DNA of 64,000 nt from an uncultured Actinomycetes bacterium (GCA_963747195.1 CAVVDV010000005.1:262814-326813); one strand, 5' to 3'; positions 1-64,000 are shown, counted from the first letter of the stretch. Numbers and translations: made by a program. Notes: generated by a model from the sequence alone, not told the origin.

Positions 1-882
1 CGGCGGTGGTCGAGCCGGCGTGGGGTCGGTACGTGGCCGGTGTCGTGCGGGCGCTCGCTGACGCCGGACGCGCGCCGGCGGGCATCGACGCCGCCCTGTC
101 GTCGACCGTGCCGGTGGGCTCGGGCATGTCGTCCAGCGCCGCGCTGGAGGTGGCGATCGCGCTCGCACTGGCGGATGCGGCAGGGTTCCGGTGCCCGGCA
201 GCCGTGCTGGCGCGGGCGTGCCAGCACGGCGAGCACCTCGCCACCGGCGTGCCGAGCGGCGTGATGGACCAGCTCGTCGCGCTCCTCGGGCGAGCCGGCC
301 ACGCGTTGCTCATCGACTGCCGGACGCTCGCCGCCGAGCCGATCGCGTTGCCGGACGCGCTCGCGGTGCTCGTGCTGCATTCGGGGCTCCCCCGCACGCT
401 GGCGGGGAGTGCCTACGCAGAACGGCGTGCCGACGGCGAACGCGTCGCCGCCCGGCTCGGCGTGCCCGCGCTTCGGGACGCGTCGCTCGACGCGGTGCGC
501 GACGAGCCGAGGGCCCGCCACGTCGTCACCGAGAACCAGCGCGTCCTCCAGTTCGCCGACGCCTCTGCGCGCCGGAGACACCGCCGCGCTCGGCTCACTG
601 ATGCTCGCCAGCCACGCCAGCCTGCGCGACGACTACGCCGTCTCGACACCCGAGCTCGACCTGGCTGTCGATCTGCTCGTCGAGCACGGCGCGGCCGGCG
701 CCCGGCTGACCGGCGCCGGGTTCGGCGGGTGCGTCGTCGCGCTGGTCCCGCGCGCGCAGGTCCGTGCCGTCGCGAGCAAGACCGTCGCCCGGTACCGGGC
801 CGAGACCGGCCTCGACGCCGACGCCTTCGAGGTGCACGCGGTCGACGGCGCCGGCCGCCTCGACCGCTCCGGTCGGCGCATG
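1..882 (+). CDS. galK: Galactokinase, 5'-truncated by window edge, one internal frame break as assembled
   Basis: The frame of ORF 6..1787 gives the GHMP-kinase signature [15 protein letters not shown] and [15 protein letters not shown]. The expected continuation [32 protein letters not shown]...[14 protein letters not shown] is in the frame of ORF 409..1080, implying an indel near 565-590. The 3' end is approximate (ATGA junction near 880). Confidence 0.8.
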
Positions 883-3374
883 ACGCTGCGGCTGTCGGCG
901 GCGGACCGCCCCCGTCCCGGCCCCGCGCCGGTCGCACCCCACTCGGAGTTCGAACCCGTCGCGGCCGCGCGCCCGCTCCCCGTGGTCGGCGGTCGAGCCG
1001 GGGGACGCAACCGTGGGCAGCGGCCGCATCGAGGTGTCGCAGTCGGGCCGGTGGGAGCGGTGGGCGGACGTCGACGGTGACCCCTCGTTCCCGGAGGCGG
1101 GGGCACGCGCCGCGGCGGGGCCACCCACCGACGTGGCCTGGCGCAAGGTTGTGGTCCCCGAGAACTACGGCTTCGACGAGGAGCTGCTCGCGCCAGTTCG
1201 CGCCGGTCTGGTACCGGCGCACGTTCGCCGACCCCCGGCACGGCGGGCTGCCCGAGTCGCCACCGCGTGTCCGACTCCGCTTCGCCGCCGTCGACTATCT
1301 CGCCGACGTGTGGCTGAACGGCGAGCACCTCGGTCATCACGAGGGCGCGTTCGCGCCGTTCGGGTTCGACGTGACCGACCGGCTGGCGAAGAACAACACC
1401 CTCCTGGTCGCGGTGCAGGATCCGCTCGAGCCGCTGGACCCGTCGGCGCTGTTCTTCGATCACCGCAAGCGCGTCATCAAGGGCACGCTGAAGTACCACG
1501 ACAGCCGGCCCGGTGGCCTGCCGGGCCGCATGGTCGGCCCGCTCGTCGAGGGCGGCGACCCCTGGGTGTGGACGCCCGAGTGGGGTCAGTCGATGACGAC
1601 GGCGGGCATCGTCGGCCCCGTCACGCTCGAGCGCACCGGCGACGCGTCCGCTCGACGCGCTGTTCGTGACGCCGCTCGGCCAACGCACCGTGCAGGTGGC
1701 GGTAGTGGCGACCAACCACACGGGCGACGACGCTCGCAACGCGCGTCGATCTCGAGCTGGCCGGCGAGCGGGCGCAGCTCGACGTGACCCTGCCGCCCGG
1801 GCCGGGACGCATCGACGTGGTCATCGAGCTCGACGGCTCGGACCTCGCGCCGTGGGAGCCGGCGGGCGAAGAATCCGGCGATCCGGCCGTGCACGAGCTC
1901 CGGGCCGCGCTGGCGACGCCGGACGGGCACGCGCTCGATCGCCGCCAGACGCGCTTCGGCCTGCGCACCGCCCGCATCGTGACCGACGACGCCGGGCATG
2001 CTCGACATCTCGAGGTGAACGGCCGGCCGGTGTTCGTGAAGGCCGTGAACTACATCCCGTGGCAACACTTCGCCGAGGTCGGCCGCAGCTTCTACGACCG
2101 CGACATGCGCATGCTGCTCGACGCGCACGGCAACTCGGTCGGCGTGCACGCGCACGTCCAGTCGCCGCACTGCTACGACGCGGCCGACGACGCCGGCGTG
2201 CTCGTGTTCCAGGACTTCGCGTTGCAGTGGTCGTACGACTCGGGCACCGAGACCAACCCGGGGTTCGTCGACACCGCCCGCCGCCAGATCGCGGAGATGG
2301 CGTACCTGCTGCACAACCACCCGAGCGTCGTCTACTACGCGTGCCACAACGAGCCCGCCCGGATGTTCGACCCGCGCCGGGCCGACGACGGGCCCGAGAC
2401 CGACCTGGGCGAGACGCACCTCGACGCCGAGCTCGACGCGACGCTGCGCGCCGTCGACACCGGCCGGCACGTGCACCGGGCGTCGGGCATCGGCGACGAC
2501 GTCCACAACTACGCCGGGATCGCTCACCGGCGGGACCCTCTACCGGGTGCGCGAGCGGCCGGCGTGGTTCGTCTCCGAGTACGGCTTCTGGACGGTCGGG
2601 CCGCAGGCCGACAAGTTCGGCGATCGCGGATGGCCGCCCGATCCGGAGCAGATGCGCGAGTGGGTCAGCCGCCTGTCGTTCATCGGCTCGACGTGCGCGT
2701 TCGCGGGACTGCCGTCACGGTACGGGTCGCGGGACGAGTGGGCCGACGCGACGCAGGCGTACGGCGCGGCCCTGGCGAAGTACCAGACCGAGTGGTTCCG
2801 GGCCCACCGCGGCGATCCGTTCATGGGCTACCGCTGGCACTTCTGGGCCGACTGGTGGGGCTACGCCGGCGGCGGCCTCGTCGACGTCGAGCGCGCCCCG
2901 AAGACGACGTACGAGGCGTTCCGGGACGCGAGCCGACCGCGACTGCTCGTCGGACTGCACGACGCCTCGGTCGTCCCGGCCGGAGCGCACGTCGTGCCCA
3001 TCGTGGCGGTGAACGACCGGCGCAAGGGATGGCGGGGCACGGCCTCGTGGGAAGTGGTCGAGGCGACGTCAGCCGTGTTCGCGCCCGACTTCGACGGGGC
3101 CCGCATCGGCCTCCCCATGCCTCCGGACGCCGACGCTCGCGTCGCCGTGCCGCGATCACGCGGCGCGGTCGTCACTCACGGCGAGCTCGCGTTTGATGCC
3201 GCGCCGACCGCGGCGACACCCGTCGGTGACGTCACGGTCCCGCTCGAAGCGGGACAGGCGCGCACCCTGGTCCTGCGATGGAACGACGTCGAACTCGGCG
3301 ACCAGGAGAACTTCGTGCACTTCCACTGCCCGGCCGACGACGAGGAGCACGGCCCCGGGCTCACGAACGTCTGA
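880..3374 (+). CDS. Glycoside hydrolase family 2 protein (beta-mannosidase/beta-galactosidase-like), at least 3 frame breaks as assembled
   Basis: The gene is split across ORF 1013..1669 ([18 protein letters not shown]), ORF 6..1787 (WYRRTF...[29 protein letters not shown]), ORF 1784..3196 ([18 protein letters not shown]...[10 protein letters not shown]) and ORF 2547..3374 (C-terminal third, stop at 3374). It shows GH2 sugar-binding and TIM-barrel hallmarks, including the NEP acid/base motif. Confidence 0.75.
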
Positions 3375-4092
3375 GCGCCTCGCAGAGCCTCGCGACGGCG
3401 TCCGGCGTCCGGATGCCCCACCAGAAGAGGTCGCGACCGTCGACCAGCCGGACGTCGGCACCGCGGACGATCGTCTCCACCTCGTCGACGTGGCGGTCCT
3501 TGAACGGGTACGGCTCGCCGGGGAGCACCACGAGGTCGGCGCGCCTCGCTGCGATCTCCTCCAGCGTCGTCTCGGGATAGCGCTCGCCGGCGCCGGCGAA
3601 CACGTTCTCGATGCCGAGCAGCTCCAACAGCGACGAGCCGTAGGTGTCCGCGTTGATCGTCATCCACGGCCGGCGCCAGACGAGCACCGCCGCGCGCCGT
3701 GCCACACCCGGTGCCACCGCACGCTGCTCGTCGAGCCACCGTTCCCACTCGTTGGGCGCGAAGGGCGCGGGCGCGTCCACACCGACCGCGTCGCCGAGCG
3801 CCGCGACGGCGGGACCCACGTCGGCCACCGAGCGGGGCGACATCGAGTGCACGCGGAGCCCGGCGTCGACGAGCGCGTCGGCGTCCTCGATCCGGTTCTC
3901 CTCGTCGTTCACGACCACGAGGTCGGGCGAGAGCGCGACGATTGCTTCGATGTCGGGATTCTTCGTCCCGCCGACCGCGGGCAGGTCGGGTTGCTCGCAG
4001 AACCGGGTGCACGCCACCGGATCGACGCCGATGGCGCGCAGCGTCTCGGTTGCGGACGGGACGAGCGAGACGACGCGCAGAGCCGTGGCTAC
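3361..4092 (-). CDS. BtuF/FhuD-type (helical-backbone) metal/cobalamin-binding protein
   Basis: The last 243 codons of ORF 3361..4659 read VVSLVPSATETLRAIG...GGTKNPDIEAIVALSPDLVVVN...DLVVLPGEPYPF. There is no obvious signal peptide. No canonical start codon sits at the expected N-terminus, so the start is approximate. Confidence 0.65.
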   Translation of the reverse strand, partial: VATALRVVSLVPSATETLRAIGVDPVACTRFCEQPDLPAVGGTKNPDIEAIVALSPDLVVVNDEENRIEDADALVDAGLRVHSMSPRSVADVGPAVAALGDAVGVDAPAPFAPNEWERWLDEQRAVAPGVARRAAVLVWRRPWMTINADTYGSSLLELLGIENVFAGAGERYPETTLEEIAARRADLVVLPGEPYPFKDRHVDEVETIVRGADVRLVDGRDLFWWGIRTPDAVARLCEALRRS

Positions 4093-4724
4093 ATCCGCTC
4101 GAGGAGCGCGGCCTTCTTGGTCTCGAACTCCTCGGCGGTGATGTGCCCCTTGTCGCGCAGGGCGGCGAGCTGCTCGATCTGGTCGGGGATGTTGGCGCCG
4201 CCACCGGCGGGCGTCGCCTGCGGAGCCGACCAGCTCGCGGTCTCCTTCGCGTTGATCTCCATCTGGCGGTAGATCTCCTGCTGCACCCCGTCGGGGTGGC
4301 GGACGTCCTCGAAGTGCGACTGGCCTTCGCGGCCCGCCGACTCGATGTCGAGGTCGCCGGCGCCGATCAGCCGCTCGAAGATCCGCTGGTGGAAGTTGAT
4401 GTTGTTGATCCGCTCGAGCGGGATCTCGACGCCGTGCTTCGAGAGCATGCCGGTGCGGAAGATCACGCGGTCGTCGGTCACCACGAAGTGGGTGTACTGC
4501 CACTGGAAGTACTTGGTCGCGAGCCACACCGCCCAGATGATCGCGAGGATCGCCCAGGCCCACCCCGCGACCGTTTTCACGCTGCCCGACAGCGTCAGCA
4601 CGCCGATGAGCGCGAGGAAGAGCGGGATCCCGGTGAGGATGTGCTTCGAGAAGTACCACCAGTGCGGCTGGAGATCGAGCGCGACCGTCTCGCCCTCGTT
4701 GAGGAGGTGCCGCGGGTAGGGCAT
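4089..4724 (-). CDS. Membrane protein with bacterial PH (bPH_2/YdbS-like) domain and C-terminal SHOCT-like tail
   Basis: The gene uses the internal ATG of ORF 4089..4991 (MPYPRHLL...). It has two hydrophobic helices, then HFVVTDDRVIFRTGMLSKHGVEIPLERINNINFHQRIFERLIGAGDLDIES, then QIEQLAALRDKGHITAEEFETKKAALLERM. Confidence 0.7.
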   Translation of the reverse strand: MPYPRHLLNEGETVALDLQPHWWYFSKHILTGIPLFLALIGVLTLSGSVKTVAGWAWAILAIIWAVWLATKYFQWQYTHFVVTDDRVIFRTGMLSKHGVEIPLERINNINFHQRIFERLIGAGDLDIESAGREGQSHFEDVRHPDGVQQEIYRQMEINAKETASWSAPQATPAGGGANIPDQIEQLAALRDKGHITAEEFETKKAALLERM

Positions 4725-4734
4725 CGAGATGATG

Positions 4735-6053
4735 CTACGGCGACGCGACGGGGCCGAGCACACGATCCAGGTACGGGTTCCGGAACCGACCGTCGGGGTC
4801 GAGGCGGGCGCGGACGGCCTGGAAGCGCGCCCACTCGGGATACCTGGGCGCGAGCGTCTCGGCCGTCTGGTAGTGCATCTTCCCCCAGTGGGGTCGACCG
4901 CCGATGTCGTCCATGATCGCCTCGACGCCCCGGAAGTACTGATCGAACGGTGTTCCCGCCGACAGGTGCACCGCGAGGTAGCCGGTCTCACGACCGTTCG
5001 CGGTGCTCAGCGGGATGTCGTCGGCCGCCGCGACTCGCAGCTCGATCGGGAAGTTCACCGCCAAGCCCTCGCGCTCGATGAGATCGCGCACGCGGAGCAG
5101 CGCCTTGCCGAGCTCGGCGCGCGGGATGGCGTACTCCATCTCGACGAACCGCACGAGCCGCCGGCTGCACAGCACCCGGTGGCTCACGTCGACGACCTCG
5201 GTCTTGCCGATCCCGCCGGCGACGAGGTTCATGAGCTTCGGGACCGCATCGGGGCGCCGGCGTCCGACCGCGGCCGCGGCGCCGAACGCGAAGTTGGCGA
5301 GCAGGATGTCGTCGCGCCACGCCTTCCACGACGACTTGGTACGGAGTGGCTCGTCGGTCCGGTTGGCGACCTTGACGGTGGCGACGTCGGTGTGCGGGAA
5401 CCAGTAGCAGTCGATGTGCTCGTTGTGGTCGACGATGTCGTCGAGGTCGTCGATGAGCGAGTCGAGAGGCCGGGGCTTCTCGATCGAGTGCAGACGGAAC
5501 GACGGCTGGCACTGGAGCGTCACCTTCGTCACCACGCCGAGCGCGCCGAGGCCGACGCGTGCGCTCGCGAACACCTCGGGCTCCTCGTCGCGCGAGCAGC
5601 GCAGCACTTCGCCATCGGCCGTGACGAGCTCCAGCGCGGTCACGAACGTGGCCAGGCCGCCGAAGCCGCTTCCCGCCGCCGTGCGTGGCGGTCGCGATCG
5701 CGCCCGAGATCGACTGCCGGTCGATGTCGCCGAGGTTTGCGAGCGCCAGGTCACGCGTCTCCAGCTCGTCGTTGAGCTGCCAGAGCGGGATGCCGCCCTC
5801 GACGGTGACCGTGCCCGCGTCGCGGTCGATCGCGACGACCCGGTTGAGCCCGCCCAGACGCAGCATCCGGCCGTCCGTGCAGGCGATGCCGGTGAACGAG
5901 TGTCCGGCGCCCACGACCTTGACCGTCTGGCCCGCCCGCTTCGCCCGCTGCACCGCCTCGACGACCTCGAGCTCGCTCGTCGGGCGTCTCGACGGCCGCG
6001 GGGCTGCACTGCTGGTTGCGACCCCAGTTGCGCCAGCGGGCCCCGTCGCGCAT
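4735..6053 (-). CDS. FAD-linked sugar-1,4-lactone oxidase/dehydrogenase (L-gulono-/D-arabinono-1,4-lactone oxidase family), 2 frame breaks as assembled
   Basis: The N-terminus WRNWGRNQQCSPAAVETP is in ORF 5751..6053. The FAD domain TVKVVGAGHSFTGIACTDG...GGIPLWQLN is in ORF 4988..5953. The ALO C-terminal domain ...GGRPHWGKMHYQTAETLAPRYPEWARFQAVRARLDPDGRFRNPYLDRVLG is in ORF 4735..6810. Confidence 0.8.
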
Positions 6054-6083
6054 CGGCCGAGAGCCTAGGTGGTCGGCGAAGCC

Positions 6084-6450
6084 CTAGCTCCAGCCCAGCT
6101 CGCGCAGGCGGGCGTCGTCGATGCCGAAGTGGTGCCCGATCTCGTGGACCACGGTGACCCGGATCTGGTGGGCGAGGTGCGCTTCGTCTTGTGACCGCTC
6201 GCACAATGGTCCCCGGAAGATCGTGACGCGGTCCGGCATCACGCCCGCGTAGTTGAGGGGCGAGCGGTTGGTGAGTTGTACGCCCTCGTACAGACCGAGG
6301 AGCGTGCCCCGTCGACCGCCGAGCTGCTCGCGCGTCGGCCAGTCCTCGACGAGGACCACCACGTTGTCCATGTGCGACGGCCAGGTCGGGGGGAATGGAG
6401 TCGAGCGCGTCGGCGACGAGCTCTTCGAAGCGGGCGCGCGACACGTGCAT
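6084..6450 (-). CDS. Zincin-like metallopeptidase family protein, one frame break as assembled
   Basis: ORF 6084..6371 carries HEIGHHFG. The N-terminal MHVSRARFEELVADALDSIPPDLA is in the frame of ORF 4735..6810, starting at 6450. Confidence 0.7.
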
Positions 6451-6481
6451 CAAATGAAAGTTACCGAGGTCGCGAAGTCCC

Positions 6482-6510
6482 TTGACGGCGCGCGGTCGCG
6501 GTCGTATGTT
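6482..6510 (+). promoter_or_regulatory. Sigma-70/SigA-type promoter candidate
   Basis: TTGACG (6482-6487), a 17-nt spacer and TATGTT (6505-6510) form a near-consensus pair inside DNA that is otherwise over 70% GC. Confidence 0.5.
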
Positions 6511-6516
6511 CGCTGG

Positions 6517-6812
6517 CACCGGTGACAAGGGCACGGCACTGGTGATGTCTGCAAGCGCAGCAGCCGGAATACGGGTCCGAGGAGTCGGTCGGCGACCGAA
6601 CGTCGGAGTGATCCGGCGCCGGGGGCCGGGACAGAGTCGATGGGGACGCCCCGCCCGCCGGGGAGCCCCCAAGGCAATCGTCCGAACGGGAGGCCCCGAG
6701 GAGATCGGAGCTGCGACGCAGCGAAGACTACTCGGGGCCTTTCCCATTTCCGCGTGTGCAGCTCGAGGGACGGTCCGCGGTTCCTGTCGTACCCGGTCGG
6801 TATGGTCCACGA
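6517..6812 (+). promoter_or_regulatory. Long structured non-coding leader / candidate cis-regulatory or small RNA upstream of the helicase
   Basis: No frame gives a credible ORF. Several perfect local hairpins are present, including a 9-bp GC stem GGCCCCGAG/CUCGGGGCC (within 6688-6745) followed by UUUCCCAUUUCC. The 5' and 3' ends are complementary. The RNA class is not assigned. Confidence 0.3.
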
Positions 6813-8859
6813 GTGCGCCCTGACCAATTGCTCGAGGACCCGCTGCTCGAGGGCCTCGACGACGCGCAGCGCGAGGCCGTCACCACGCGCGCCGTACCGC
6901 TCGCGATCCTCGCCGGCGCCGGCGCGGGCAAGACGCGCGTCCTCACCCGTCGCATCGCCTGGCAGGCCCGGCACGCGCACATCGACCCGGGGCACACGCT
7001 CGCGGTCACGTTCACGCGCAAGGCCGCCGGCGAGCTCGGCGATCGCCTCACCCGGCTCGGGGTCCGCCGCCAGGTCACCGCGGGCACGTTCCACGCCATC
7101 GCGCTCGCGCAGCTCCGGCGCCGGTGCGAGGACCACGACCGGCCGATGCCGAAGCTGCTCGACCGCAAGGCGCGCCTCCTCGTGCCGATGCTGCCGGGCC
7201 GGGGCCGCGAGCGCGCGCTGCTCGCCGCCGAGGTCGCGTCCGAGATCGAGTGGGCGAAGGCGCGCCTCGTCCGCCCCGACGGCTACCAGGCCGCCGCCGA
7301 GGCGGCGCGGCGGGACCCGCCGCGGCCCCCGGCCGAGATCGCCGTCTTCTTCGAGCGGTACGAACGCGAGCGCCGCCGCCGGGGCCTCGTCGACTTCGAC
7401 GACCTCATCACGTGGTGCGCCGACGTGCTCGAGACCGACGCCGAGTTCCCGGCCGCGCAGCGCTGGCGGTTCCGGCACCTCTTCGTCGACGAGTTCCAGG
7501 ACGCCAACCCCGCCCAGTTCCGCCTCGTCGCGCGCCTGGCTCGGCGACCGCGCCGACCTGTGCGTCGTCGGCGACGGCGACCAGGCGATCTACGGGTTCG
7601 CCGGCGCCGACGCGTCGTATCTCACCTCGTTCGGCGACCACTTCCCCGGCGCGGCCGTCGTGCGGCTCGGCACGAACTACCGCTCGTCGCCGCAGGTCGT
7701 GTCGGCCGCGGCGGCGGTGCTGGACGACGAGCGGTGATCGAGCCGGCGTCCGCAGCTCCCGACCCGAGGGCCCGCTCCCGGTCGTCCGCTCGTACCCGAG
7801 CGACGAGGCCGAAGCCGAGGGCGTCGCGCGGTCGTTGCGCCGCGACCACCCGCCGGGGACGCCGTGGTCGTCGGCGGCGGTGCTGTACCGGACGAACGCG
7901 CAGTCGGCGCTGTTCGAGGAGGCGCTGCGGCGCGAAGGCGTCCCGTTCCGCGTGCGCGGCGGCGGGCGGTTCCTCGACCGACCCGAGGTCCAGGTCGCGC
8001 TCGACGACGCTCCGCGAGCGGACCGGCGAACAGCCCGGCGTCCCGTTCGCCGGGCCACCTCGACGCCCTCACCGAGAGCACCGCCGACGCGTCCGAGGAA
8101 CGCCGCGAGCACGTCGAGGCGATCGGCCGCCTCGGCCGCGAGTACCTCGACGCCGACGGCGGGAACGGGTCACTCGCCGGGTTCCTCGCGTTCCTGCAGA
8201 CCGCGTTGCGGCCGGCGACGACACCGGGGCCTCGAGCGGCGACGCGGTCGAGCTGCTCAGCTTCCACCGGGCCAAGGGCCTCGAGTTCGACACCGTGTTC
8301 GTCACCGGCTTCGAGACGGGGCTCGTGCCGATCTTGCACGCCGAGACGCCGCAGGAGAAGGCCGAGGAGCTGCGTCTCCTGTACGTGGCGTTGTCGCGCG
8401 CCGAGCGCAGCGCTGCACCTGAGCTGGGCCCAGAAGCGCACCGTGGGGATGCGCACCTACCGCCGTACGCCCAGCCCGTGGCTGGCCCCGATCGAGGCGA
8501 CCGTGTCGGCGGCGCGCGCGCCGGAAGGCGGCAACGGGGCGCGCGACGAGCAGGGTCGCGGGCTCGCCGCCGCCCGTGAGCAGGTCGCCGGCGCGCGACG
8601 CCAGTCCGGAGCCACGCGCGACCAGCTCGACGCCGACGGCAACCGAGCTCCTCGGCGCGCTCCTCGAATGGCGTCGCAACCTCGCCGCGCGTCGGGCGTG
8701 CCGGCCTACGTGATCTTCCACGACACGACCCTCGAGGCCGTCGCCCGCGACCGGCCGCGGTCCCGGGGCGACCTGCTGACGATCCCGGGCATCGGGCCGG
8801 TCAAGCTCCAGCGGCACGGCCAGGCCCTGCTCGAGATGGTCGGCCAGCACCCCGGCTGA
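6813..8859 (+). CDS. UvrD/PcrA/Rep-family SF1 DNA helicase with C-terminal HRDC-like domain (UvrD2-like), at least 5 frame breaks as assembled
   Basis: The Walker A region AILAGAGAGKTRVLTRRIA, TFHAIALAQL and FRHLFVDEFQDANPAQFRL are in ORF 6756..8579. LCVVGDGDQAIYGFAGAD...GTNYRSSPQV is in ORF 6640..7737. AVLYRTNAQSALFEEALRREGVPFRVRGG is in ORF 7124..8422. VELLSFHRAKGLEFDTVFVTG...RLLYVALSRAE is also seen. The C-terminal VPAYVIFHDTTLEAVARDRP...IPGIGPVKLQRHGQALLEMV is in ORF 7864..8859. The GTG start at 6813 is in the frame of ORF 6756. Confidence 0.85.
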
Positions 8860-8926
8860 CCCACCGTTGACGGGCCGGGCTCGCTCGGCCACCATGCGGG
8901 CACGGCACCGGCAGCGGAGTGACGCG

Positions 8927-9244
8927 ATGGCGTGGTCGAGCTTCCCGGTCTTCCCCACCGACGACGGCTGGCCGTACCCCGATCTCCCCCGCGGGTTCGA
9001 CGATCCCGCCGCCGACGACGAGGTCGACCTCGACGCGCTCGAGCTGCGGGTCGACCCGCACACGTTCGAGTGCCTGGACCCGACCGAGTACGAGCTCGTG
9101 GCTCGCCGGTTCGGGTTCAACGGCCCCGCCACGTCGATGAAGGACCTCGCCCACGAGCTCGGCTGGTCGCACACCCAGACTCGCGACGTGCTGGGCGGCG
9201 CCATCGACAAGCTCCGCACCCGGCTCACCACCGACACGCTCTGA
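8927..9244 (+). CDS. Small stand-alone sigma-70 region-4-like helix-turn-helix protein
   Basis: The gene uses the internal ATG (MAWSSFPVFP...) of ORF 8867..9244. The C-terminal LDPTEYELVARRFGFNGPATSMKDLAHELGWSHTQTRDVLGGAIDKLRTRL resembles a sigma region 4 HTH. No sigma region 2 is present. Confidence 0.55.
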   Translation: MAWSSFPVFPTDDGWPYPDLPRGFDDPAADDEVDLDALELRVDPHTFECLDPTEYELVARRFGFNGPATSMKDLAHELGWSHTQTRDVLGGAIDKLRTRLTTDTL

Positions 9245-9251
9245 CCCGCGG

Positions 9252-54805: not shown

Positions 54806-55447
54806 ATGGGCATGTTCAAGAAGTTCAAGTCAATGACCGGTTCGGTGGACAAGGATCTGCTCAAGAACGGGCTGCTCGGACGGGGCACGCTCATGGAGGT
54901 CCAGCAGACCAGGGTGAGCACCGGCGGCGATGACGCGTTCTCCCGGCCGGTGTGCGTGTTCACGGTCGAGGTCGCGCTCGACAACGTGCCCGTGTACACG
55001 GCCTCCTGCCGGCAGTCGGTCCCGATCACGGTCCTGCCGCGGTTGGTGCCCGGCCAGACCGTGACCGCGGTGCGGGTGAACCCCGACAACCACGACGAGA
55101 TCGCGCTCGACCTCGCCACCGAGCCGCCCGAGGTCATGATGGCCCAGGGCTCGGGGCAGGCGACGGCGGCTGACGTCCTCGCGAGAGGCAACCCGGTGCG
55201 CGCGGTGATCGTGCAGACGCAGCCCCTGGGCATGAAGAACCCGCAGGGCGTCGACATGCACGCCTTCATCCTGACGGTCATGTCCGACGGCCAGAAGCCG
55301 TACCAGGCCAAGGTGGGCAACCCCGTCCCCGAGGACGCCGTGCCGCTCCTCTTCCCCGGGTCGAACCTGCCGGCGAAGGTCCTGCCCGAGGAGGCTCAGG
55401 GCGTCTGCATCGACTGGACCGCCGCGCTCGCAGAGTTCACGAAGTAG
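54806..55447 (+). CDS. Hypothetical protein built from two homologous about 85-aa domains
   Basis: ORF 54806..55447 is intact, with AAGGAG upstream. The first half reads GRGTLMEVQQTRV...VCVFTVEVALDNVPVYTASCRQSVP...LVPGQTVTAVRVNPDNHDEIALD. It parallels the second half, GNPVRAVIVQTQPLG...MHAFILTVMSDGQKPYQAKVGNPVP...LFPGSNLPAKVLPEEAQGVCID. Confidence 0.5.
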   Translation: MGMFKKFKSMTGSVDKDLLKNGLLGRGTLMEVQQTRVSTGGDDAFSRPVCVFTVEVALDNVPVYTASCRQSVPITVLPRLVPGQTVTAVRVNPDNHDEIALDLATEPPEVMMAQGSGQATAADVLARGNPVRAVIVQTQPLGMKNPQGVDMHAFILTVMSDGQKPYQAKVGNPVPEDAVPLLFPGSNLPAKVLPEEAQGVCIDWTAALAEFTK

Positions 55448-56309
55448 CCGCCAGCGCGTGGTCGAGCGCGGCGGCGAGCTGGTCGGGGGATTCGAGCATC
55501 GGGTAGTGGCCGATGCCGCGCAGCCGCACGAGCGTCGCGTCCGGTCGCGTCTCGTGAACCCGTTCGGCCATCAGCCAGACGGCGATCGGGTCGAGGTCGC
55601 CCCACACGATCGTCAACGGTGACGGGTGGCGCTCGATCGCGCCGGTCCAACGGCGTTCGTGCTCGCGGCGCTCCTCGACGTAGCGGATCGTGCGCGGCAG
55701 CAGGCGGTCGCCGCCGTCCCGGAGGATGAGCTCGGCGCCCACCTGCACGTCTTCGTCGGGCACCAGCGCGTCGGGCGCGAACGTGCCTCGGAGCGCATCG
55801 ACGAGCGCGTCGCGCCCGAGCCCGTCGGCCAGCCGTTCGTCCGGCAAGGCGAGCAGGAGCTGCTGCCCGTCGGTCAGGTGCGCCATGTCGATGTACACCG
55901 AGCCGTTCGTGAGGACGCGGCGCGTCACGTCGAACGACAGCGTGCCGTCAATGCTCCGGGCGAGCAGCTCGCCGCCGACCGAGTCGCCCATGTCGTGGGT
56001 GACCAGCGCGACCTCGTCGAGCCCGAGGTCGCCGGCGACCGCCTCGACCAGGTCCGCCTGCTCGAACAGCGAGTAGCGCTGGTCGGGCTTGTCCGAGAGG
56101 CCGAAGCCGAGGAGATCGGGCACGACGACCCGGTGGCGGCGCGCGAACCGGTCGAGGACGCGATGCCAGTCATGCGACGACGTCGGGAAGCCGTGGAGCA
56201 CGAGGACGGGAGGCCGCGCGCCCCCGTCCGCATCCGTCGGTGACCGGTCCACGACGAAGACCCGATGGCCCGATACGTCGTGGTACTCACCGCGCTCGTT
56301 CCCACGCAT
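55437..56309 (-). CDS. Alpha/beta hydrolase
   Basis: The gene uses an internal ATG (MRGNERGEYHDVSGHRVF...) of ORF 55437..56372. It contains VLVLHGFPTSSHDW and the nucleophile-elbow-like VTHDMGDSVG. It is intact. Confidence 0.8.
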   Translation of the reverse strand: MRGNERGEYHDVSGHRVFVVDRSPTDADGGARPPVLVLHGFPTSSHDWHRVLDRFARRHRVVVPDLLGFGLSDKPDQRYSLFEQADLVEAVAGDLGLDEVALVTHDMGDSVGGELLARSIDGTLSFDVTRRVLTNGSVYIDMAHLTDGQQLLLALPDERLADGLGRDALVDALRGTFAPDALVPDEDVQVGAELILRDGGDRLLPRTIRYVEERREHERRWTGAIERHPSPLTIVWGDLDPIAVWLMAERVHETRPDATLVRLRGIGHYPMLESPDQLAAALDHALAATS

Positions 56310-56396
56310 CGACTCCAACGTCACCCGACACCACCGCGGCATCGTAAGCTCCGCCGCCGTGCCGGTGATCACCGCACATCCAGTCTGGGCCTCGTT

Positions 56397-57263
56397 GTGG
56401 CGACGTCACCAACGCCGCGTTCCCGCCGGTTCGACGCCGGGGGCGTGAACCTCGCCGTGCACGAATGGGGTGGCGACGGCCACCCCGTCCTGCTCGCGCA
56501 CCCGACCGGCTTCCACGGCCTCACGTGGGCGCCGGTGGCGGCGCGGCTCGTCGACGCCGGGCGGCGGGTGTGGTCGTTCGACTACCGCGGGCACGGCGAC
56601 AGCGACAAGTCACCCGACGGCTATCGGTGGTCGGAGTTCGCCGACGACGTCATGGCCGTCGTGCACGAGCTCGGCCTCGCCGGTGAGGCGACGTTGCTCG
56701 CGTGCGGTCACTCGAAGGGCGCCGCGTCACTCCTGCTCGGCGAGGCGCGTGAGCCGGGCACCTTCGCCCGCCTGTGGTGCTACGAGCCGATCGTGTTCCC
56801 GAGCGACGAGCCGCTGGAGCCCCGGCACGACTTCCCGCTCTCGGAGGGCGCTCGCCGCCGCCGCGCCGTGTGGCCGTCACGTGACGAGGCGTTCGCGTCG
56901 TACGGGTCGAAGCCTCCGCTCGACGTGCTCGACGCCGCCGCGCTCCGCGCCTACGTGGAGTACGGGCTGGGCGATCGGCCCGACGGTCAGGTCGAGCTGA
57001 AATGCCGGCCGGAGGACGAGGCCACCATCTATGCGATGGGCGTCGCCAACGGCGTGTACCCGCGGCTTCGCGACGTGCGCTGCCCGACGCTCGTCGTGTG
57101 CGGCGAGCACACGGACGCGATCCCGCCCACGCTCGGCGAGATGATCGTCGAGCGGCTTCCAGCCGGCCGGCTCGAGGTCATGCCCGGCGTCGGCCACTTC
57201 GGGCCGATGCAGGACCCCGACGCGACCGTCGAGTCCATGCTCCGATTCGCGGCTGCGACCTGA
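56397..57263 (+). CDS. Alpha/beta hydrolase
   Basis: The GTG at 56397 lies within ORF 56265..57263. It contains VLLAHPTGFHG, FDYRGHGDSD, ACGHSKGAAS and GVGHFGPMQDPD. It is intact. Confidence 0.8.
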   Translation: MATSPTPRSRRFDAGGVNLAVHEWGGDGHPVLLAHPTGFHGLTWAPVAARLVDAGRRVWSFDYRGHGDSDKSPDGYRWSEFADDVMAVVHELGLAGEATLLACGHSKGAASLLLGEAREPGTFARLWCYEPIVFPSDEPLEPRHDFPLSEGARRRRAVWPSRDEAFASYGSKPPLDVLDAAALRAYVEYGLGDRPDGQVELKCRPEDEATIYAMGVANGVYPRLRDVRCPTLVVCGEHTDAIPPTLGEMIVERLPAGRLEVMPGVGHFGPMQDPDATVESMLRFAAAT

Positions 57264-57285
57264 GAGCCCGCCACTAGCGTCACCG

Positions 57286-57780
57286 GTGATGCTCCACGAA
57301 CGGAACGCAGCCCGCGTGGTGCTGGTCGCCGACGGGCGGGTACTGCTCCAGCAGGGCTTCGATCCCGGGAGGCCCGAGGCCGGTACGTGGTGGATCACGC
57401 CCGGCGGCGGCGTGAACGACGGGGAATCCGTCGAGGATGCGGCGGTGCGGGAGGTCCTCGAGGAGACAGGGCTCCACCTCTCGCCGGCGCAGCTCGGACC
57501 GGTGATCGCGACACGCGTCGCCTACTTCGAGTTCGACGGTCGCCAGTTCCGCCAGAGCGAGTCGTTCTTCGCCGTGCACGTCGAGACGTTCACGCCCCAG
57601 CATCACGGGTGGGACGAGGTCGAGCAGCGAGCGCTGCTGGATCACCGGTGGTGGAGCGTCGCCGAGCTGCGGGCGACCGACCAGGCGGTGTACCCGAGAG
57701 AGCTGGCTGACGTGGTCCAGGCCGTCATCGACGGCACGCTCAGCGGGCCGATCCGGCTCGACACGGCCCGGCAAACCTGA
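57286..57780 (+). CDS. NUDIX hydrolase
   Basis: ORF 57286..57780 carries the Nudix box GGGVNDGESVEDAAVREVLEETG. It is intact. Confidence 0.85.
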   Translation: MMLHERNAARVVLVADGRVLLQQGFDPGRPEAGTWWITPGGGVNDGESVEDAAVREVLEETGLHLSPAQLGPVIATRVAYFEFDGRQFRQSESFFAVHVETFTPQHHGWDEVEQRALLDHRWWSVAELRATDQAVYPRELADVVQAVIDGTLSGPIRLDTARQT

Positions 57781-57827
57781 GCGCCGCGCCCCGTGCGCGC
57801 AACTGCACGCGGCGAAGGTGCAGTCAG

Positions 57828-58763
57828 ATGATCGAGGTCCGAGGTCTGACGAAGCACTACGGGACGACGGTCGCCGTCGACGGTCTGTCGTTCCAGGTGC
57901 CGGCGGGCCGGGTCACCGGGTTCCTGGGGCCGAACGGGGCGGGCAAGACGACGACCATGCGCCTCATCCTCGGGCTCGACGCGCCGACGAGCGGCAGCGT
58001 GACCGTCAACGGCGAGCCCTACCGCCGGCGGCGCTTCCCGATCCACGACGTCGGGGCACTGCTGGACGCGCAGGCGCTGCACCCCGGCCGCAGCGCGGCG
58101 AGCCACTTGTGGTCGTTGGCGCAGAGCAACCGCATCGGGCGGCACCGCGTCGACGAGGTCCTCGGCATGGTCGGCCTGTCCGACGTCGCGGCGCGCCGGG
58201 CCGGGCCGTTCTCGCTCGGGATGAAGCAACGCCTCGGCATCGCCGGCGCGCTGCTGGGTGATCCCCAGATCCTGTTGTTCGACGAGCCCGTGAGCGGCCT
58301 CGACCCCGAGGGCATCGTCTGGATCCGCGACCTCTTTCACCGGCTTGCAAGAGAGGGACGCACCGTCTTCGTGTCGAGCCACGTCATGAGCGAGATGGCG
58401 CTCACCGCGCAGCACCTCATCGTCATCGGACGCGGCAAGCTCATCGCCGACGACAGCATCGAGCACATCACCGCCGGCGCGGGATCTTCGGTGCTCGTGC
58501 GATCGCCCCGACACGACGAGCTCATGGCCTTGCTCACGAGCGACGGGGCGACGGTTCGCAGCGAGGGAGGCGCGTTGACGGTGATCGGCGTCGACGCCGC
58601 CCACATCGGCGACCTCGCCGCCCGTCACGGCATCGCGCTGCACGAGCTCAGTCCGCAGCGGGCATCCCTCGAAGAAGCGTTCTTCGAGCTCACCGACGAG
58701 AGCGTCGAGTACCACGGCGCCGACCTCACGAAGAGCGGCGCGACCACGGAGAACCGCCGATGA
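57828..58763 (+). CDS. ABC transporter ATP-binding protein (ABC-2 exporter type)
   Basis: ORF 57828..58763 has Walker A GPNGAGKTT, the signature FSLGMKQR and Walker B ILLFDEP. It is intact. Confidence 0.9.
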   Translation: MIEVRGLTKHYGTTVAVDGLSFQVPAGRVTGFLGPNGAGKTTTMRLILGLDAPTSGSVTVNGEPYRRRRFPIHDVGALLDAQALHPGRSAASHLWSLAQSNRIGRHRVDEVLGMVGLSDVAARRAGPFSLGMKQRLGIAGALLGDPQILLFDEPVSGLDPEGIVWIRDLFHRLAREGRTVFVSSHVMSEMALTAQHLIVIGRGKLIADDSIEHITAGAGSSVLVRSPRHDELMALLTSDGATVRSEGGALTVIGVDAAHIGDLAARHGIALHELSPQRASLEEAFFELTDESVEYHGADLTKSGATTENRR

Positions 58764-58817
58764 CCACAGCTGCTCCCACCACGGCCGAGACGACCCCGCC
58801 CGACGACGCGGTCACCC

Positions 58818-59612
58818 GTGATTCCCGGACCCCGCGGCCGGATCCTCCCGGCCGTCGTCCGCTCCGAGTGGACCAAGATCCGCTCCGTTCGCTCGACGGT
58901 CTGGTCGCTGTTCGCCACCTTCGGCATCACCGTCGGGCTCGGCGCGCTGTTCTGTTTCGCCTATGTCCGGCGGTACGACCACCTCAACATCCGGCAACGC
59001 CTGACGTTCGACCCCACGGTGCAGAGCCTGCGCGGCCTGTTCCTCGCGCAGATCGCGATCGGGGTCCTCGGCGTGCTGGTCATCAGCTCCGAGTACGCCA
59101 CCGGCCTCATCCGAACCACGCTGACCGCGGTTCCGCAACGCCGAACCCTGCTCGCGGCCAAGGCCATCGTGTTCGGCGCGGTCGCGCTCGTCGTCAGCAT
59201 GATCTCCGTGTTCGTGGCGTTCTTCGTCGGCCAAGCCGTGCTCCACGGCAAGCACCTCGGCGTCGCGCTCGGGGATCCGCACGTGCTGCGAGCCGTCCTC
59301 GGCGCCGGCGTCTACCTCACCATCGTCGGGCTGCTCGGCCTCGCGCTCGGCGCCATCGTGCGCCGCACCGCGGGTGCCATCGCCACGCTCTTCGCCGTCG
59401 TGCTGGTGCTCCCACTCCTGACTCGGGCGCTGCCCAGCCCCTGGGACACAGACATCGGCAAGTTCCTCCCCGCCGAGCTCGGCGCCGCGATGTTCAACGT
59501 GCGACCCGATTCCAGCCTGCTCTCGCCCGGCACCGCGCTCGTCGTCGCGCTCGTGTGGCTCGTGGTCGCGTTCACCCTCGCGGCCGTCCTGATCACCCGA
59601 CGCGACGCGTAA
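58818..59612 (+). CDS. ABC-2 family transporter permease
   Basis: ORF 58818..59612 has six hydrophobic segments and the N-terminus VVRSEWTKIRS. An alternative start is the ATG at 58760, which overlaps the ATPase stop, but it needs one frame change near 58815. Confidence 0.8.
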   Translation: MIPGPRGRILPAVVRSEWTKIRSVRSTVWSLFATFGITVGLGALFCFAYVRRYDHLNIRQRLTFDPTVQSLRGLFLAQIAIGVLGVLVISSEYATGLIRTTLTAVPQRRTLLAAKAIVFGAVALVVSMISVFVAFFVGQAVLHGKHLGVALGDPHVLRAVLGAGVYLTIVGLLGLALGAIVRRTAGAIATLFAVVLVLPLLTRALPSPWDTDIGKFLPAELGAAMFNVRPDSSLLSPGTALVVALVWLVVAFTLAAVLITRRDA

Positions 59613-59639
59613 CCGTCGGCTGCCGGTCAAGATGGGCCG

Positions 59640-60466
59640 GTGCCGTACGACCCGACGATCTACCGAGGGAGCGCCCGCTACTACGCGCCCGGTCGTCCGC
59701 CGTACTCGCGGGAGCTCGTCTCGACGCTCACCGACGAGGTCGGCCTCGACGGATCCGGTCGGCTGCTCGACGTCGGATGCGGTCCGGGAATCCTGACCGT
59801 CGAGCTCGCGCCTTCGTTCGACGAGGCGATCGGCCTCGACCCGGATGCGGACATGCTCCGCGAAGGCGCGCGTCGCGCGGACGAAGCCGGCGTCGACAAC
59901 ATCGATTGGGTCGAGGCGCTCGCGGAAGACATCCCCGAACTCGATCTCGGGACGTTCCGGCTCGTGACGTTCGGCCAGTCGTTCCAGTGGACCGATCAGG
60001 TCCGCGGTCGCGGAAGCCATCTACGACCTGCTCCAGCCTGGCGGCGCGTTGGCGCTCGTCGTGAACACCGTCGAAGGTCGGCCCGAGCCCGAGGGACCCG
60101 GCTTACCCGCCGATCCCGCACGACGAGATCCGCGAGATCATCCGCCGCTACCTGGGATCCCGCCGGCGTGCCGGGCAGGGGTACCGCCTCGACACGTTCG
60201 AACGGTACGAGGACGCACTGGCCCGGACTCGGTTCGGGAAACCGCGCGTCGTTTGGGCGCCGGGCCGCCCCGACGTCGTCCGCGACGTCGACGGCGTGCT
60301 CGCCGGCTACCTCTCGATGTCCTACGCGGCGCCGCACCTCTTCGGCGACCGGCTCGATGCGTTCACGGCCGACGTGCGCGCGCTGCTGACCGAGCGCTCA
60401 CCCAGCGGCCTGTTCTGGGACTGGCCGGGCGACACCGAGATCCTCCTCGCTCCCAAGCTGGGTTAG
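59640..60466 (+). CDS. Class I SAM-dependent methyltransferase, 2-3 frame breaks as assembled
   Basis: ORF 59640..60389 has motif I RLLDVGCGPGILT. PGGALALVVNT is in ORF 60049..60708. The C-terminal part IREIIRRYLGSRRRAGQGYR...LFWDWPGDTEILLAPKLG was translated by hand, with its stop at about 60464-60466. Confidence 0.7.
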
Positions 60467-61587
60467 GGCGGGACGAGGTCCCAGTTGCCGGGCTCGCCGA
60501 CGACCCGCCAGTCTCCATAGGTCTTGAGATCGTGGTGATGCGAGCAGATGCGCCAGGTGTTGAGGATGTTGGTCTCGCCGTGTTCCTCGATCGGGACCAC
60601 GTGGTCGACCTCGAGGAACTGGTCGTTGGCGCACGACTTGACCCCGCAGCTCGGGTAGCGGGCCTCGAGCGCCCGGCGCAGCTTCGCCGGGATCGTGCGC
60701 TTGGGTGACGAGACGGCCGTGATGTCGTCGCCGTCGCGCACCATCACCGCGACCGACGCGTCGTCGAGCAGCGCTCGGGCCGTCGTGACCGGCACCGGCC
60801 CGACCCGGTCGATCTCGCAGCGCTCCCCGTTCTCGGTGTGGCCGCGGGCCAGCGCCGCGCTGTCGACCGTGACACGTACCTCCACCGGCTTGCACGGGCC
60901 TTCACTCGCCAGCGCCACGAGCGCGTCGGCGGCGTAGGCGGCGCGCGGCTCGCGTCGCCCCGCTCGACGGGCATCGCAGAAGATGCGGTCGACGTGTGCC
61001 TTCCACGCCGAGCTGAACCGCGCCCCGGCGTCGGGTGCCATGCGAGCGCTGAGGCAGTACGCGCCATCGGGATCGGTCCACTCATGCGCCTTGCGCTCGA
61101 CGTGCAGCCGCCGCGCCCAGGCTCGGTCGTCGGCCTCGGCTCCGGCGCGCACCTGCCGGCACCGATCGCGCAGTCCCTTCACGCTCGTCTCGGCCGCCGT
61201 CTCCAACAGCTCCCGCTCGGCGCCCGGATCTGCGCCTGCCGCGCCGCGATCTCCGCCGCCTGCGTTCCGGACAGCTCGCCGGCGCGGAACGCGGCGTCGG
61301 TCTCGGGCAACTGCTCGAGCGCCCGCGCCGTCTCCAACGTCCGGGCCGCGGCACCAACCGTCTCGCCGGTCGCCTCGGCCACCCAGTGCGCCGCGCTGCG
61401 ATGCCCGCTGTCGCGCCAGACCTTCGTCTCCTCGACCCGGCGCGCCAGCGCGAGCCTTGATCGCCGTGCACAGCCGCTCGGCACGGGCGGCGTCGTTGAA
61501 GAGCTCCACGGCACGCGGCGCATCGAACGTGCGTGGGATCAACTCTCGAGAGATCTGCTCGAGCTCGCCGAGCACCTGCGCGAACAC
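60463..61587 (-). CDS. DUF222-type HNH endonuclease (mycobacterial REP13E12-like family), 2 frame breaks as assembled
   Basis: The GTG at 61587 is in frame with ORF 60463..62676 and has GGGGGAGG upstream. The N-terminus reads FAQVLGELEQISRELIP. The middle part WRDSGHRSAAHWVAEATGETVGAAARTLETARALEQLPETDAAFRAGELS is in ORF 61179..61523. The C-terminal HNH region reads RYPSCGVKSCANDQFLEVDHVVPIEEHGETNILNTWRICSHHHDLKT. Confidence 0.8.
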   Translation of the reverse strand: MFAQVLGELEQISRELIPRTFDAPRAVELFNDAARAERLCTAIKARAGAPGRGDEGLARQRASQRGALGGRGDRRDGWCRGPDVGDGAGARAVARDRRRVPRRRAVRNAGGGDRGAAGADPGAERELLETAAETSVKGLRDRCRQVRAGAEADDRAWARRLHVERKAHEWTDPDGAYCLSARMAPDAGARFSSAWKAHVDRIFCDARRAGRREPRAAYAADALVALASEGPCKPVEVRVTVDSAALARGHTENGERCEIDRVGPVPVTTARALLDDASVAVMVRDGDDITAVSSPKRTIPAKLRRALEARYPSCGVKSCANDQFLEVDHVVPIEEHGETNILNTWRICSHHHDLKTYGDWRVVGEPGNWDLVPP

Positions 61588-61630
61588 GCCTCCCCCTCGG
61601 GAACCGGACACCGACCGGGGAAGCAGGAAC

Positions 61631-61659
61631 ATCATACGAACATATGTTCGCCTTGTCAA
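61631..61659 (-). promoter_or_regulatory. Consensus promoter TTGACA-17-TATGAT with embedded LexA-type SOS (Cheo) box CGAACATATGTTCG
   Basis: The minus strand reads cTTGACAaggCGAACATATGTTCGTATGATg. The 14-bp perfect palindrome (61637-61650) fills the spacer. The -35 hexamer overlaps the stop codon (61656-61658) of the upstream LLM gene. Confidence 0.65.
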
Positions 61660-62676
61660 GCCCCGCTCTTGAACCCCTCGACGACGCGTGCCCAGCGCTC
61701 GGGGTCGCTCTTGTACGGCGCGTAGAAGCTGAGGCGGTCGACGACGTCGCCGTAGCGGTCGAGCAGCTTCGCCGGGATCTCCTCGGGCTCGCCGGTGACG
61801 GCGAACGTGCCGAGGATCTCGTCGTCGACGAGCTCGCCCATCTGCTCCCACTCGCCCTGCTTCGAGAGGCGGTTGAGGTCGCCCTGGAGGTCGCCCCAGC
61901 CGTGCAGCTCGAGGACGCCCCGGTACGCGGGCGTCGAGCCGTAGAACGCGATCTGCTGCTTCGTGCCGCGCCGCGCCGCCTCGTACTCCTCCTCGTTGGT
62001 GCCGGTGACCACGAACATCGGTCCCGACAGCTCGAAGTCGCCCCGCTGCTTGCCGGCCCGCGCCCAGCCCCGCTCGAGCGCGGGCATGGTGACCTCGCGC
62101 ACGTAGCGCTCGGTCGTGAAGCCGTGCAGCAGGATCCCGTCGGCGACCTCGCCCGCGACCTCGGTCATGCGCTCGCCCACGGCGGCGAGGAACACCTTCG
62201 GGACGCCGTACGGGTTGGGGCCGGGGTTGAAGAACGGCGTCATGAGCGTGTGGCGGTAGAACTCGCCCCGGAAGTCGAGCTTGTCGCCCGTCGTTCCAGC
62301 ACGCCCAGATGGCGCGCATCGCGAGGATGAACTCGCGCATCCGCTTCGCCGGCTCCGACCACGGCATCGAGAACCGCTTCTCGATGTGCGGCTTGATCTG
62401 GCTGCCGAGGCCGAGGATGAAGCGACCCTTCGTGTACAGCTGGAGGTCGTTGCCGATCACGGCCGTCGACATCGGGTTGCGGGCGAACGCCACCGCGATG
62501 CCGGTGGCGAGCTCGATGCGCTCGGTCTCCAGCGCGGCCAGCGTGATCGGGAGGAACGGGTCGTGGCTCGTCTCGGCGGTGAACACGCCGTCGTATCCCA
62601 GCTCCTCGAGCTCCCGCGCCGCCGCCGGCATCTCCTCCGGCCGGGCCGTCATCACCGTTCCGTCGACTCGCATCAT
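61656..62676 (-). CDS. LLM-class (luciferase-like) F420-dependent oxidoreductase, one frame break near 62280 as assembled
   Basis: The N-terminal part ELEELGYDGVFTAETSHDPFLPITLAA...GRFILGLGSQIKPHIEKRFSMPW is in ORF 60463..62676. The C-terminal part FFNPGPNPYGVPKVFLAAVGERMTEVAGEVADGILLHGF...AFYGSTPAYRGVLELHGW is in ORF 61656..62243. Confidence 0.8.
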
Positions 62677-63598: not shown

Positions 63599-63609
63599 CC
63601 GGCGGCGCT

Positions 63610-64000
63610 TCAGGCGGCCGCGCTCGCCGTGGCCAGCAGCCGGCGTGCCTCGCGTGGGTGCCGCAGGCGCAGCACCTCGAGATGCGCGTACTCCGGGCGC
63701 CGCAGCAGATCGGGGTACTTGCGACGCCGCTCGCCGTGCTTCACCCACGCCCAGCGGATCGGGTGCTCGGGATCAGCCCAGGTCCGCCAGTCCTCGCGGT
63801 TCTCGTTCCACATCGGCTTGCGCGTGATGGCGCGCCACACCGAGCGGCGGATCACGCGCACCATGATCAACGGACGCTCGTAGTCGAGCCACACCAGCTG
63901 GTCGGCGCGGCCCCAGACCAGGTCGCGCACCGCCTCGTAGTTGCCGTCGCAGACCCAACGGTCGCCGGCGGTCGCCGGCGTCGGTGCGCTCGCGCAACTC
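63610..64000 (-). CDS. P-loop NTPase / adenylate-kinase-like (topology-modulation-like) protein, 5' part beyond window
   Basis: ORF 63610..63930 (VWGRADQLVWLDYERPLIMVRVIRRSVWRAITRKPMWNENREDW...HPIRWAWVKHGERRRKY) continues upstream in the same frame (WVCDGNYEAV...) to the window edge. Confidence 0.55.
   Translation of the reverse strand, partial: SCASAPTPATAGDRWVCDGNYEAVRDLVWGRADQLVWLDYERPLIMVRVIRRSVWRAITRKPMWNENREDWRTWADPEHPIRWAWVKHGERRRKYPDLLRRPEYAHLEVLRLRHPREARRLLATASAAA

Follow-up and report, generated by a model that had tools for sequence, protein, structure and literature searches.

The closest described counterparts of the locus analysed here are of three kinds. Fragmentation of genes by indels is known in Nanopore assemblies and has been discussed in PMC9262707 and PMC12313526, and Flye, when it assembles long metagenomic reads, merges closely related strains into one sequence (Strainberry paper, PMC8302730). 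Reductive genomes rich in pseudogenes, such as that of Mycobacterium leprae, form the third. We compare with them a 64-kb stretch of a contig from an uncultured Actinomycetes bacterium (GCA_963747195.1, CAVVDV010000005.1:262814-326813; hereafter the window), in which the reading frames of many protein-coding genes, including gltB, purK and a coaA-like gene, are broken in kilobase-scale blocks separated by blocks that are clean. The frame breaks are an artefact and no biological feature or discovery: they are very probably errors of the consensus in a contig that was assembled from long metagenomic reads and belongs to an uncultured member of the Acidimicrobiia from soil, the genes themselves being intact and functional in the organism. 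Roughly 180-200 single bases are spurious, mostly an extra C or G outside homopolymers, and they occupy about 1.3% of positions inside the blocks and none between them.

As in the gene fragmentation of Nanopore-only assemblies (metaFlye with Medaka) seen in IDEEL-type tests, frameshifts in the window split conserved and essential genes, and related long-read loci are affected far more than short-read loci. The classic error of such assemblies is the deletion or insertion of a homopolymer base, whereas the window carries single C or G insertions outside homopolymers, in blocks and partly reproducible. In strain-collapsed metagenome assemblies one contig stands for several co-occurring haplotypes, and its consensus quality depends on polymorphism within the population; the possible parallel in the window is that inserted bases match neighbouring alleles of relatives. 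The literature describes a mosaic consensus of single-nucleotide polymorphisms (SNPs) with lost strain resolution, whereas in the window a SNP would have been converted into an insertion. In M. leprae, as here, many genes appear interrupted, housekeeping genes included, but decay of that type brings nonsense mutations together with deletions of varied size and a relaxed constraint on codon positions. The window is unlike it in having no in-frame stops, almost only +1 shifts, a strong third-position bias of substitutions and intact genes in a 93–95% identical relative.

The window has a GC content of 71% and holds 300 open reading frames (ORFs) of at least 100 aa over all frames. Because every frame of high-GC DNA contains long ORFs, the coding frame was tracked with a codon-usage hidden Markov model (HMM) over six frames, in which a "+1" switch corresponds to one extra base; a simple plot of GC at third codon positions (GC3) was too noisy for strand calling and was dropped. 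Plain tblastn without composition correction was likewise abandoned, as it produced floods of spurious high-GC matches and alignments that crossed out-of-frame stretches. Frameshifts in gltB and in a carotenoid oxygenase gene were located with a purpose-written protein-to-DNA dynamic-programming aligner that allows them, and Pfam scans of frame-corrected translations were compared with scans of raw ORFs. The best matches of the window genes are MAGs (metagenome-assembled genomes) of uncultured Acidimicrobiia. Three relatives served for nucleotide alignment: L002, a JGI short-read contig with 85% identity to the window; L003, a short-read MEGAHIT MAG contig, 93–95% identical and collinear with window positions 39919–54590; and L083 (contig_40893), a long-read contig from another ENA assembly, collinear with 2694–20984 at 88–91% identity. 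In addition 69 related loci were compared, 47 from short reads and 22 from long reads, the latter being Microflora Danica MAGs together with ENA contigs whose names follow the pattern "contig_N". NCBI and ENA list several clean window proteins, along with one out-of-frame fragment of gltB (P0001), all from a single contig, so the breaks belong to the public record and not to this extraction.

The HMM called 136 same-strand frame switches in the window, 106 of them +1, and after removal of 26 candidate gene junctions 110 breaks were left (17 per 10 kb), about 37 times the density found by the same model in short-read relatives (0.46 breaks per 10 kb over 824 kb). Nucleotide alignment with L003 and L083 independently places indels no more than about 10 nt from the switch points, and the switches without a matching indel are ordinary gene junctions only. 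In dense stretches the model counts too few, calling about 30 switches in gltB where about 60 are real, and the true contrast is therefore sharper than these figures show. The breaks are strongly clustered (per-kb index of dispersion 2.48, p = 6.5e-10; lag-1 autocorrelation 0.40), with 22 empty 1-kb bins (11.5 expected) and seven gaps without any break that extend over 2.5 kb or more (1.4 expected; P < 0.0002). The longest break-free stretches include the blocks beginning at 17096, 23404, 28172 and 42350 (Table 1) as well as 45956–49754, while 50086–54112 is free of breaks except for one at 51184. An earlier note, made from the sequence alone, had described abundant breaks confined to blocks of genes with clean blocks beside them, and both parts of that description agree with the HMM. 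Its clean blocks correspond in essence to long break-free stretches; in 54114–59636 the only flags, at 56427 and 57822, concern segments of 30 and 46 nt that adjoin gene starts, and we read them as gene-junction noise.

The lesions themselves are almost purely insertional. Alignment of gltB, already recognised in the earlier note as heavily broken, to each of several overlapping partial homologues requires 41–47 shifts, which amounts to about 60 for the whole gene, nearly all of them +1; there are no in-frame stops, and the corrected protein is 75–87% identical to its homologues (87% end to end with P0012). In the carotenoid oxygenase (RPE65 family) 17 shifts, 14 of +1 and three of −1, are again accompanied by no in-frame stop, and after correction residues 1–449 are 91.8% identical to P0030 and the RPE65 profile is covered completely (1–469/469). 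Frameshift-aware alignment, for which the earlier note had called, confirms that these genes are broken in the contig. Nucleotide alignments give the same picture, with 51 one-base insertions over 3.4 kb when the window is compared with L002, 35 one-base insertions and eight deletions against L003 at 39919–42448 (only isolated events occur in the rest of the collinear range), and 55 insertions and nine deletion columns against four short-read relatives at 38.0–42.4 kb. Insertions outnumber deletions by about 5–10 to 1, and +1 events make up about 80% of the total. The gltB substitutions specific to the window are distributed over codon positions 1, 2 and 3 as 3:10:24, and their share at positions 1 and 2 resembles that of the short-read L002 lineage; since they are not enriched at these positions, damage other than by insertion must be slight.

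The added bases are mostly C or G and mostly lie outside homopolymers, an identical base being touched in 12/55, 10/33, 8/29 and 4/24 insertions of the sets compared (about a fifth to a third). The classic Nanopore homopolymer indel is ruled out as the source by these proportions together with the excess of insertions, as deletions are at least as frequent as insertions in that class of error.

Short-read relatives lack the lesions. In L003 a single intact ORF of 497 aa encodes the oxygenase (profile 1–469), which in the window is scattered over four or more ORFs, and the TetR gene of L003 is intact; taken together, L002 and L003, both from accurate technology, have intact RPE65, TetR and gltB genes. 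Intact orthologues of this enzyme number more than 100 in other metagenomes. Related long-read assemblies have the lesions: L083 is as riddled with one-base insertions as the window, and among the 22 long-read loci the median density is 2.15 breaks per 10 kb (range 0.5–29; 76% of +1 type; clustered too), compared with 0.48 per 10 kb in the 47 short-read loci (Mann-Whitney p = 7e-7). We infer that long-read technology also lies behind the window itself. A search for the L083 copy of the oxygenase at the protein level returned, among its best 120 matches, intact short-read orthologues only.

These comparisons bear directly on genuine pseudogenisation, in which the lineage would be losing genes block by block through reductive decay and which the earlier note had left standing as an alternative. 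The breaks do exist in the deposited record, and a four-way alignment of gltB shows that 24 of the 57 one-base insertions of the window are also present in L083 (stretch 7500–13100), from a different assembly, while 33 are confined to the window and 29 to L083; since roughly one common site is expected by chance, the 24 would at face value be inherited. However, substitutions between the two gltB sequences fall on codon positions 1, 2 and 3 as 43:35:130, so that gltB has been under purifying selection over the whole divergence of the two genomes, and the common insertions are accordingly systematic errors and not ancestral frameshifts. Decay is further contradicted by the lack of in-frame stops in gltB and RPE65 and of larger deletions, by a spectrum consisting almost wholly of +1 shifts, which runs counter to the deletional bias of bacterial mutation, and by corrected proteins that are 87–92% identical to intact orthologues over their full length. 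It would also have to strike essential genes (gltB, purK, coaA) that are intact in a short-read MAG 93–95% identical, and it leaves the excess of breaks in long-read assemblies unaccounted for. The absence of stops, the one-sided spectrum, the intact relatives, the third-position bias and the association with long reads together lead us to reject biological pseudogenisation, to which we attach almost no credence. Because the consensus errors of these assemblies are partly reproducible, a frameshift is not confirmed by its presence in two such MAGs.

Identical error positions in two independent assemblies could also be expected if basecalling failed systematically at a DNA modification or at a specific sequence motif. 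We consider this very improbable. Inspection by eye of 92 mapped insertion sites, with no formal enrichment test, revealed no convincing common motif (TCGA, CpG or alternating CG); a genome-wide modification would not spare blocks of 3–4 kb entirely; and modification-driven Nanopore errors are mostly substitutions. The most radical proposal is that the extra bases are truly in the DNA and are bypassed by massive +1 recoding or by transcript editing, or, in a milder form, that locally clustered DNA modification derails basecalling within blocks. The 24 gltB insertions common to the window and an independently assembled relative can be cited as a hint of the first form, and if that were true, genes would be under purifying selection in spite of dozens of frameshifts; we regard the proposal as the least credible of all the explanations considered.

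What determines the blocks is a separate question, and the earlier note favoured an answer in which a hybrid assembly keeps residual long-read indels in extreme-GC segments that short-read polishing missed. Its first element stands, the breaks being technical long-read indels and not pseudogenes. The second is improbable. Break density does correlate with GC content per kb (Spearman rho 0.47, p = 7e-5), and 1-kb bins with at least three breaks have a mean of 72.6% GC (range 66.8–75.3%) against 69.9% in clean bins (64.3–74.1%). The two ranges overlap widely, however, so that confinement of errors to extreme-GC segments is not seen among the 1-kb bins, and dense blocks such as 40–42.4 kb, at about 70–72.5% GC, lie near the window average; GC is a moderate correlate and not a determinant. 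The indels are moreover not of the homopolymer type, and traceable relatives with similar damage come from a pipeline without short-read polishing: the Microflora Danica long-read MAGs are Nanopore-only, assembled with metaFlye and given one round of Medaka 1.8.0 (PMC12313526).

Low local read depth or failed polishing, by which read coverage over stretches of a few kb would have been too thin and near-raw long-read sequence left in the contig, is a live contributor, although we doubt that it is the explanation. It agrees with block sizes of 0.4–7 kb, on the scale of read lengths, and with the wide variation among related long-read MAG loci (0.5 to 29 breaks per 10 kb), as dependence on depth predicts; R10.4 assemblies are reported to need about 40x depth for near-finished quality (PMC9262707). 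Raw-read error would nevertheless bring mismatches and deletions, whereas the substitutions in the window look evolutionary and insertions exceed deletions 5–10 to 1. Nor are random errors expected to hit 24 of 57 gltB insertion sites again in an independent assembly, to match the adjacent alleles of relatives, or to give correlated block positions in two assemblies. Over 18 kb of synteny the density of errors in L083 follows that in the window (rho 0.57, p = 2.5e-4), indicating that block position depends on the locus and not purely on random dips in coverage.

The mechanism that appears to fit best is a mixed-population consensus, which the earlier note had named as a fallback. The errors would most likely arise at the polishing or consensus step, from reads of a microdiverse population or of cross-recruited close relatives. 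Where such reads disagree, as with C versus G in the third position of a codon, both alleles would be kept side by side in the consensus and a SNP would become a one-base insertion; blocks would be broken where the recruited reads are polymorphic and clean where they agree. Such a conversion would account for the insertion-only spectrum, for the preference for C and G where the genome is GC3-rich and for the non-homopolymer context, and also for the block pattern and the partial recurrence between assemblies, which would have polymorphic sites in common. The signal that points to it comes from 141 insertions in four sets (window gltB, L083 gltB, the common sites and window 38.0–42.4 kb). In 60 of these (about 43%) the extra base is the same as a relative's allele in the column next to it, the focal genome having another base there, as against about 26 (about 19%) at offsets 2–6; random-placement controls gave P < 0.0005, < 0.0005, 0.011 and 0.03 for the four sets, the alleles being those of relatives. 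In a typical case the window reads C[G] where relatives show C or G at one third-codon position. High microdiversity in soils is described by the Microflora Danica authors (PMC12313526).

Several observations weigh against this interpretation. The adjacent-allele signature is limited to under half of the insertions, at about 43%. Insertion slots show only a weak, non-significant third-position bias, the preceding base being at position 3, 2 or 1 in 25, 14 and 13 cases. Error density is related to divergence with opposite signs for the two relatives (rho −0.40 for L083, +0.43 for L003) and so does not decide the mechanism. Typical Nanopore errors are homopolymer indels (PMC12313526, PMC9262707) and the window lesions are of another type, and our search of the literature yielded no description of consensus artefacts that turn SNPs into insertions.

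Blocks, genes and breaks are collected in Table 1. Raw ORFs carry only pieces of the domains that frame-corrected translations recover complete: in the first ClC gene, for example, they match positions 50–101 and 102–220 of the Voltage_CLC profile only, against 2–344/346 and a CBS domain after correction. Pfam scans of corrected translations bear out the list of broken genes in the earlier note (galK, GH2, UvrD, purK, coaA-like PRK, ClC, xthA, GH43, MMPL, carotenoid oxygenase, P450, LLM and ACAD). Its caution that coordinates and products within broken blocks are approximate is right. Two long ORFs that it had called fusion artefacts are indeed composed of several genes in mixed frames, 33942–35774 fusing neighbouring genes and 60463–62676 the DUF222/HNH gene with the luciferase-like monooxygenase.

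Table 1. Broken and clean blocks along the 64-kb window, with single genes and isolated events
State and content	Position	Strand	Breaks and evidence	Domains and proteins
Broken: galK (GHMP kinase) and GH2 glycosidase	500–2600	+	Six +1 switches at about 562, 988, 1191, 1645, 1730, 2520	Corrected: GHMP_kinases_N/C, Glyco_hydro_2_N
Broken: within UvrD-like helicase (gene about 6820–8860)	7500–8700	+	At least six switches; HMM breaks 7536, 8007, 8052, 8205, 8407, 8641; extra bases relative to L083 at 7529, 8005, 8052, 8410, 8635	Corrected: UvrD-helicase 1–271/271, UvrD_C, HRDC
Densest block: gltB, purK and start of coaA-like PRK gene	10400–17100	mixed	Alignments, Pfam	
gltB	10886–15672	−	About 60 frameshifts	
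purK	15788–16924	+	Three shifts; Pfam on corrected translation	
coaA-like PRK gene, start	17094		One shift; Pfam on corrected translation	
Clean: PRK/coaA body, ECF sigma factor, PhyH dioxygenase, DUF2855, DinB-like gene	17096–21116		No HMM break	Single-ORF full-length Pfam domains; PhyH protein 307 aa, equal to its length in relatives
Sparsely broken: aldo/keto reductase; CoA-transferase III and methyltransferase	21100–23410		HMM breaks 21117, 21597 (reductase); 22402, 23403 (others)	Corrected: Aldo_ket_red 3–289/291; CoA_transf_3 1–366/366
Clean: two SMP-30/gluconolactonase-like genes and DUF7064/7065 gene	23404–27109		No HMM break	Single-ORF Pfam domains
Broken: within first ClC chloride channel (26979–28489)	27100–28200	−	Seven switches, HMM	
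Clean: MarR regulator, second intact ClC (29015–31045), universal stress protein	28172–32090		No HMM break; Pfam	
Broken: APH-type kinase, DUF6285, xthA (Exo_endo_phos), PNPOx-like (+), then GH43 (−)	34860–37800	+, then −	HMM: 10 switches (+), 2–3 switches (−)	Corrected: APH full-length, DUF6285 1–91/91, Exo_endo_phos 1–225/225, PNPOx_N, Glyco_hydro_43
Dense: MMPL transporter, TetR regulator, carotenoid oxygenase (RPE65 family, 41054–42411)	38055–42350	+	55 window-only one-base insertions, nine deletion columns (five-way alignment)	
Clean: ETF beta and alpha subunits and neighbours	42350–45500	−	No coding indel relative to L003; Pfam	ETF-alpha sequence present in public databases
Small cluster: FAD_binding_3 oxidoreductase	45511–45955	+	Four breaks; indels relative to L003 at 45511, 45564/45567, 45777, 45955 coincide with HMM switches; Pfam	
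Small cluster: carboxyl-transferase gene	49755–50085	+	Three insertions relative to L003 at 49755, 49808, 50085; HMM 49760, 49806, 50079	Corrected: Carboxyl_trans 1–477/493
Isolated one-base insertion: P450 gene	51184	+	Relative to L003; HMM switch 51186	p450 Pfam match
Isolated one-base insertion: gene 53986–54691, family unassigned	54113	+	Relative to L003; HMM switch 54115	
Clean: hydrolases, NUDIX, ABC-2 ATPase and permease	54114–59636			Single-frame Pfam domains
Sparsely broken: methyltransferase (+), then DUF222/HNH gene and luciferase-like monooxygenase (−)	59637–62290	+, then −	HMM breaks 59637, 60001, 60101, 61224, 61453, 62286	Corrected: Bac_luciferase 20–311/314; DUF222 8–305/306

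Some features of the locus deserve mention in their own right. Within gltB, positions 12950–13120 hold a lineage-specific in-frame insertion of about 26–28 codons, charged and rich in Lys, Glu and Asp, relative to more distant Acidimicrobiia homologues; its occurrence in both L083 and L002 marks it as genuine variation and not error. The minus-strand region 26979–31045 contains tandem paralogous ClC genes with CBS domains and a MarR gene between them, the first with seven switches and the second intact. The DUF222/HNH-endonuclease gene (60464–61600), of the 13E12-repeat type, adjoins the luciferase-like monooxygenase and may be a mobile-element remnant.

The positions of the blocks coincide only in part between the window and L083: in both, gltB-purK is densely broken, whereas PhyH and the sigma factor are free of breaks. 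DUF2855, clean in the window, is fragmented in L083 according to both gene calls and HMM breaks (L083 4000–7000, syntenic to window positions of about 17000–20300), and at window 4000–7000 (syntenic to L083 at about 17100–20200) there are 45 extra bases in L083 against 11 in the window. In a more distant long-read relative (L001; ENA ERZ25039597 contig_3151) gltB is split into 880 and 514 aa (10001–14620) and a Peripla_BP_6 gene is in three pieces (17330–19959), at a much lower density of three breaks per 10 kb. The clean window proteins at 43262–44230, 18489–19412 and 57828–58763 belong to 90%-identity clusters that have between 18 and nearly 300 members, most of them derived from JGI metagenomes; the size of these clusters indicates a widespread lineage with many close variants, which fits the microdiversity invoked above.

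Public "proteins" derived from the broken genes are themselves partly out of frame. They include P0001 (window 12699–14177) and also P0019 and P0023, which come from different assemblies and both align from window coordinate 14177. Such entries pollute homology searches, and gltB matches seemed to be 35% identical before frame correction.

The value of the finding is practical and concerns database quality. A public MAG record contains kilobase-scale blocks with about 1.3% spurious insertions, which fragment essential genes, fuse neighbouring ones and seed databases with partly out-of-frame entries such as P0001. Recurrent C/G insertions that lie outside homopolymers and mirror neighbouring alleles would escape quality checks centred on homopolymers, and this type of error suggests that consensus tools fail on microdiverse populations in a way that could be corrected. 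For the organism and its relatives the meaning is direct: inside such blocks, gene calls, pseudogene counts, completeness estimates and metabolic reconstructions are wrong, both in this genome and in the long-read genomes related to it.

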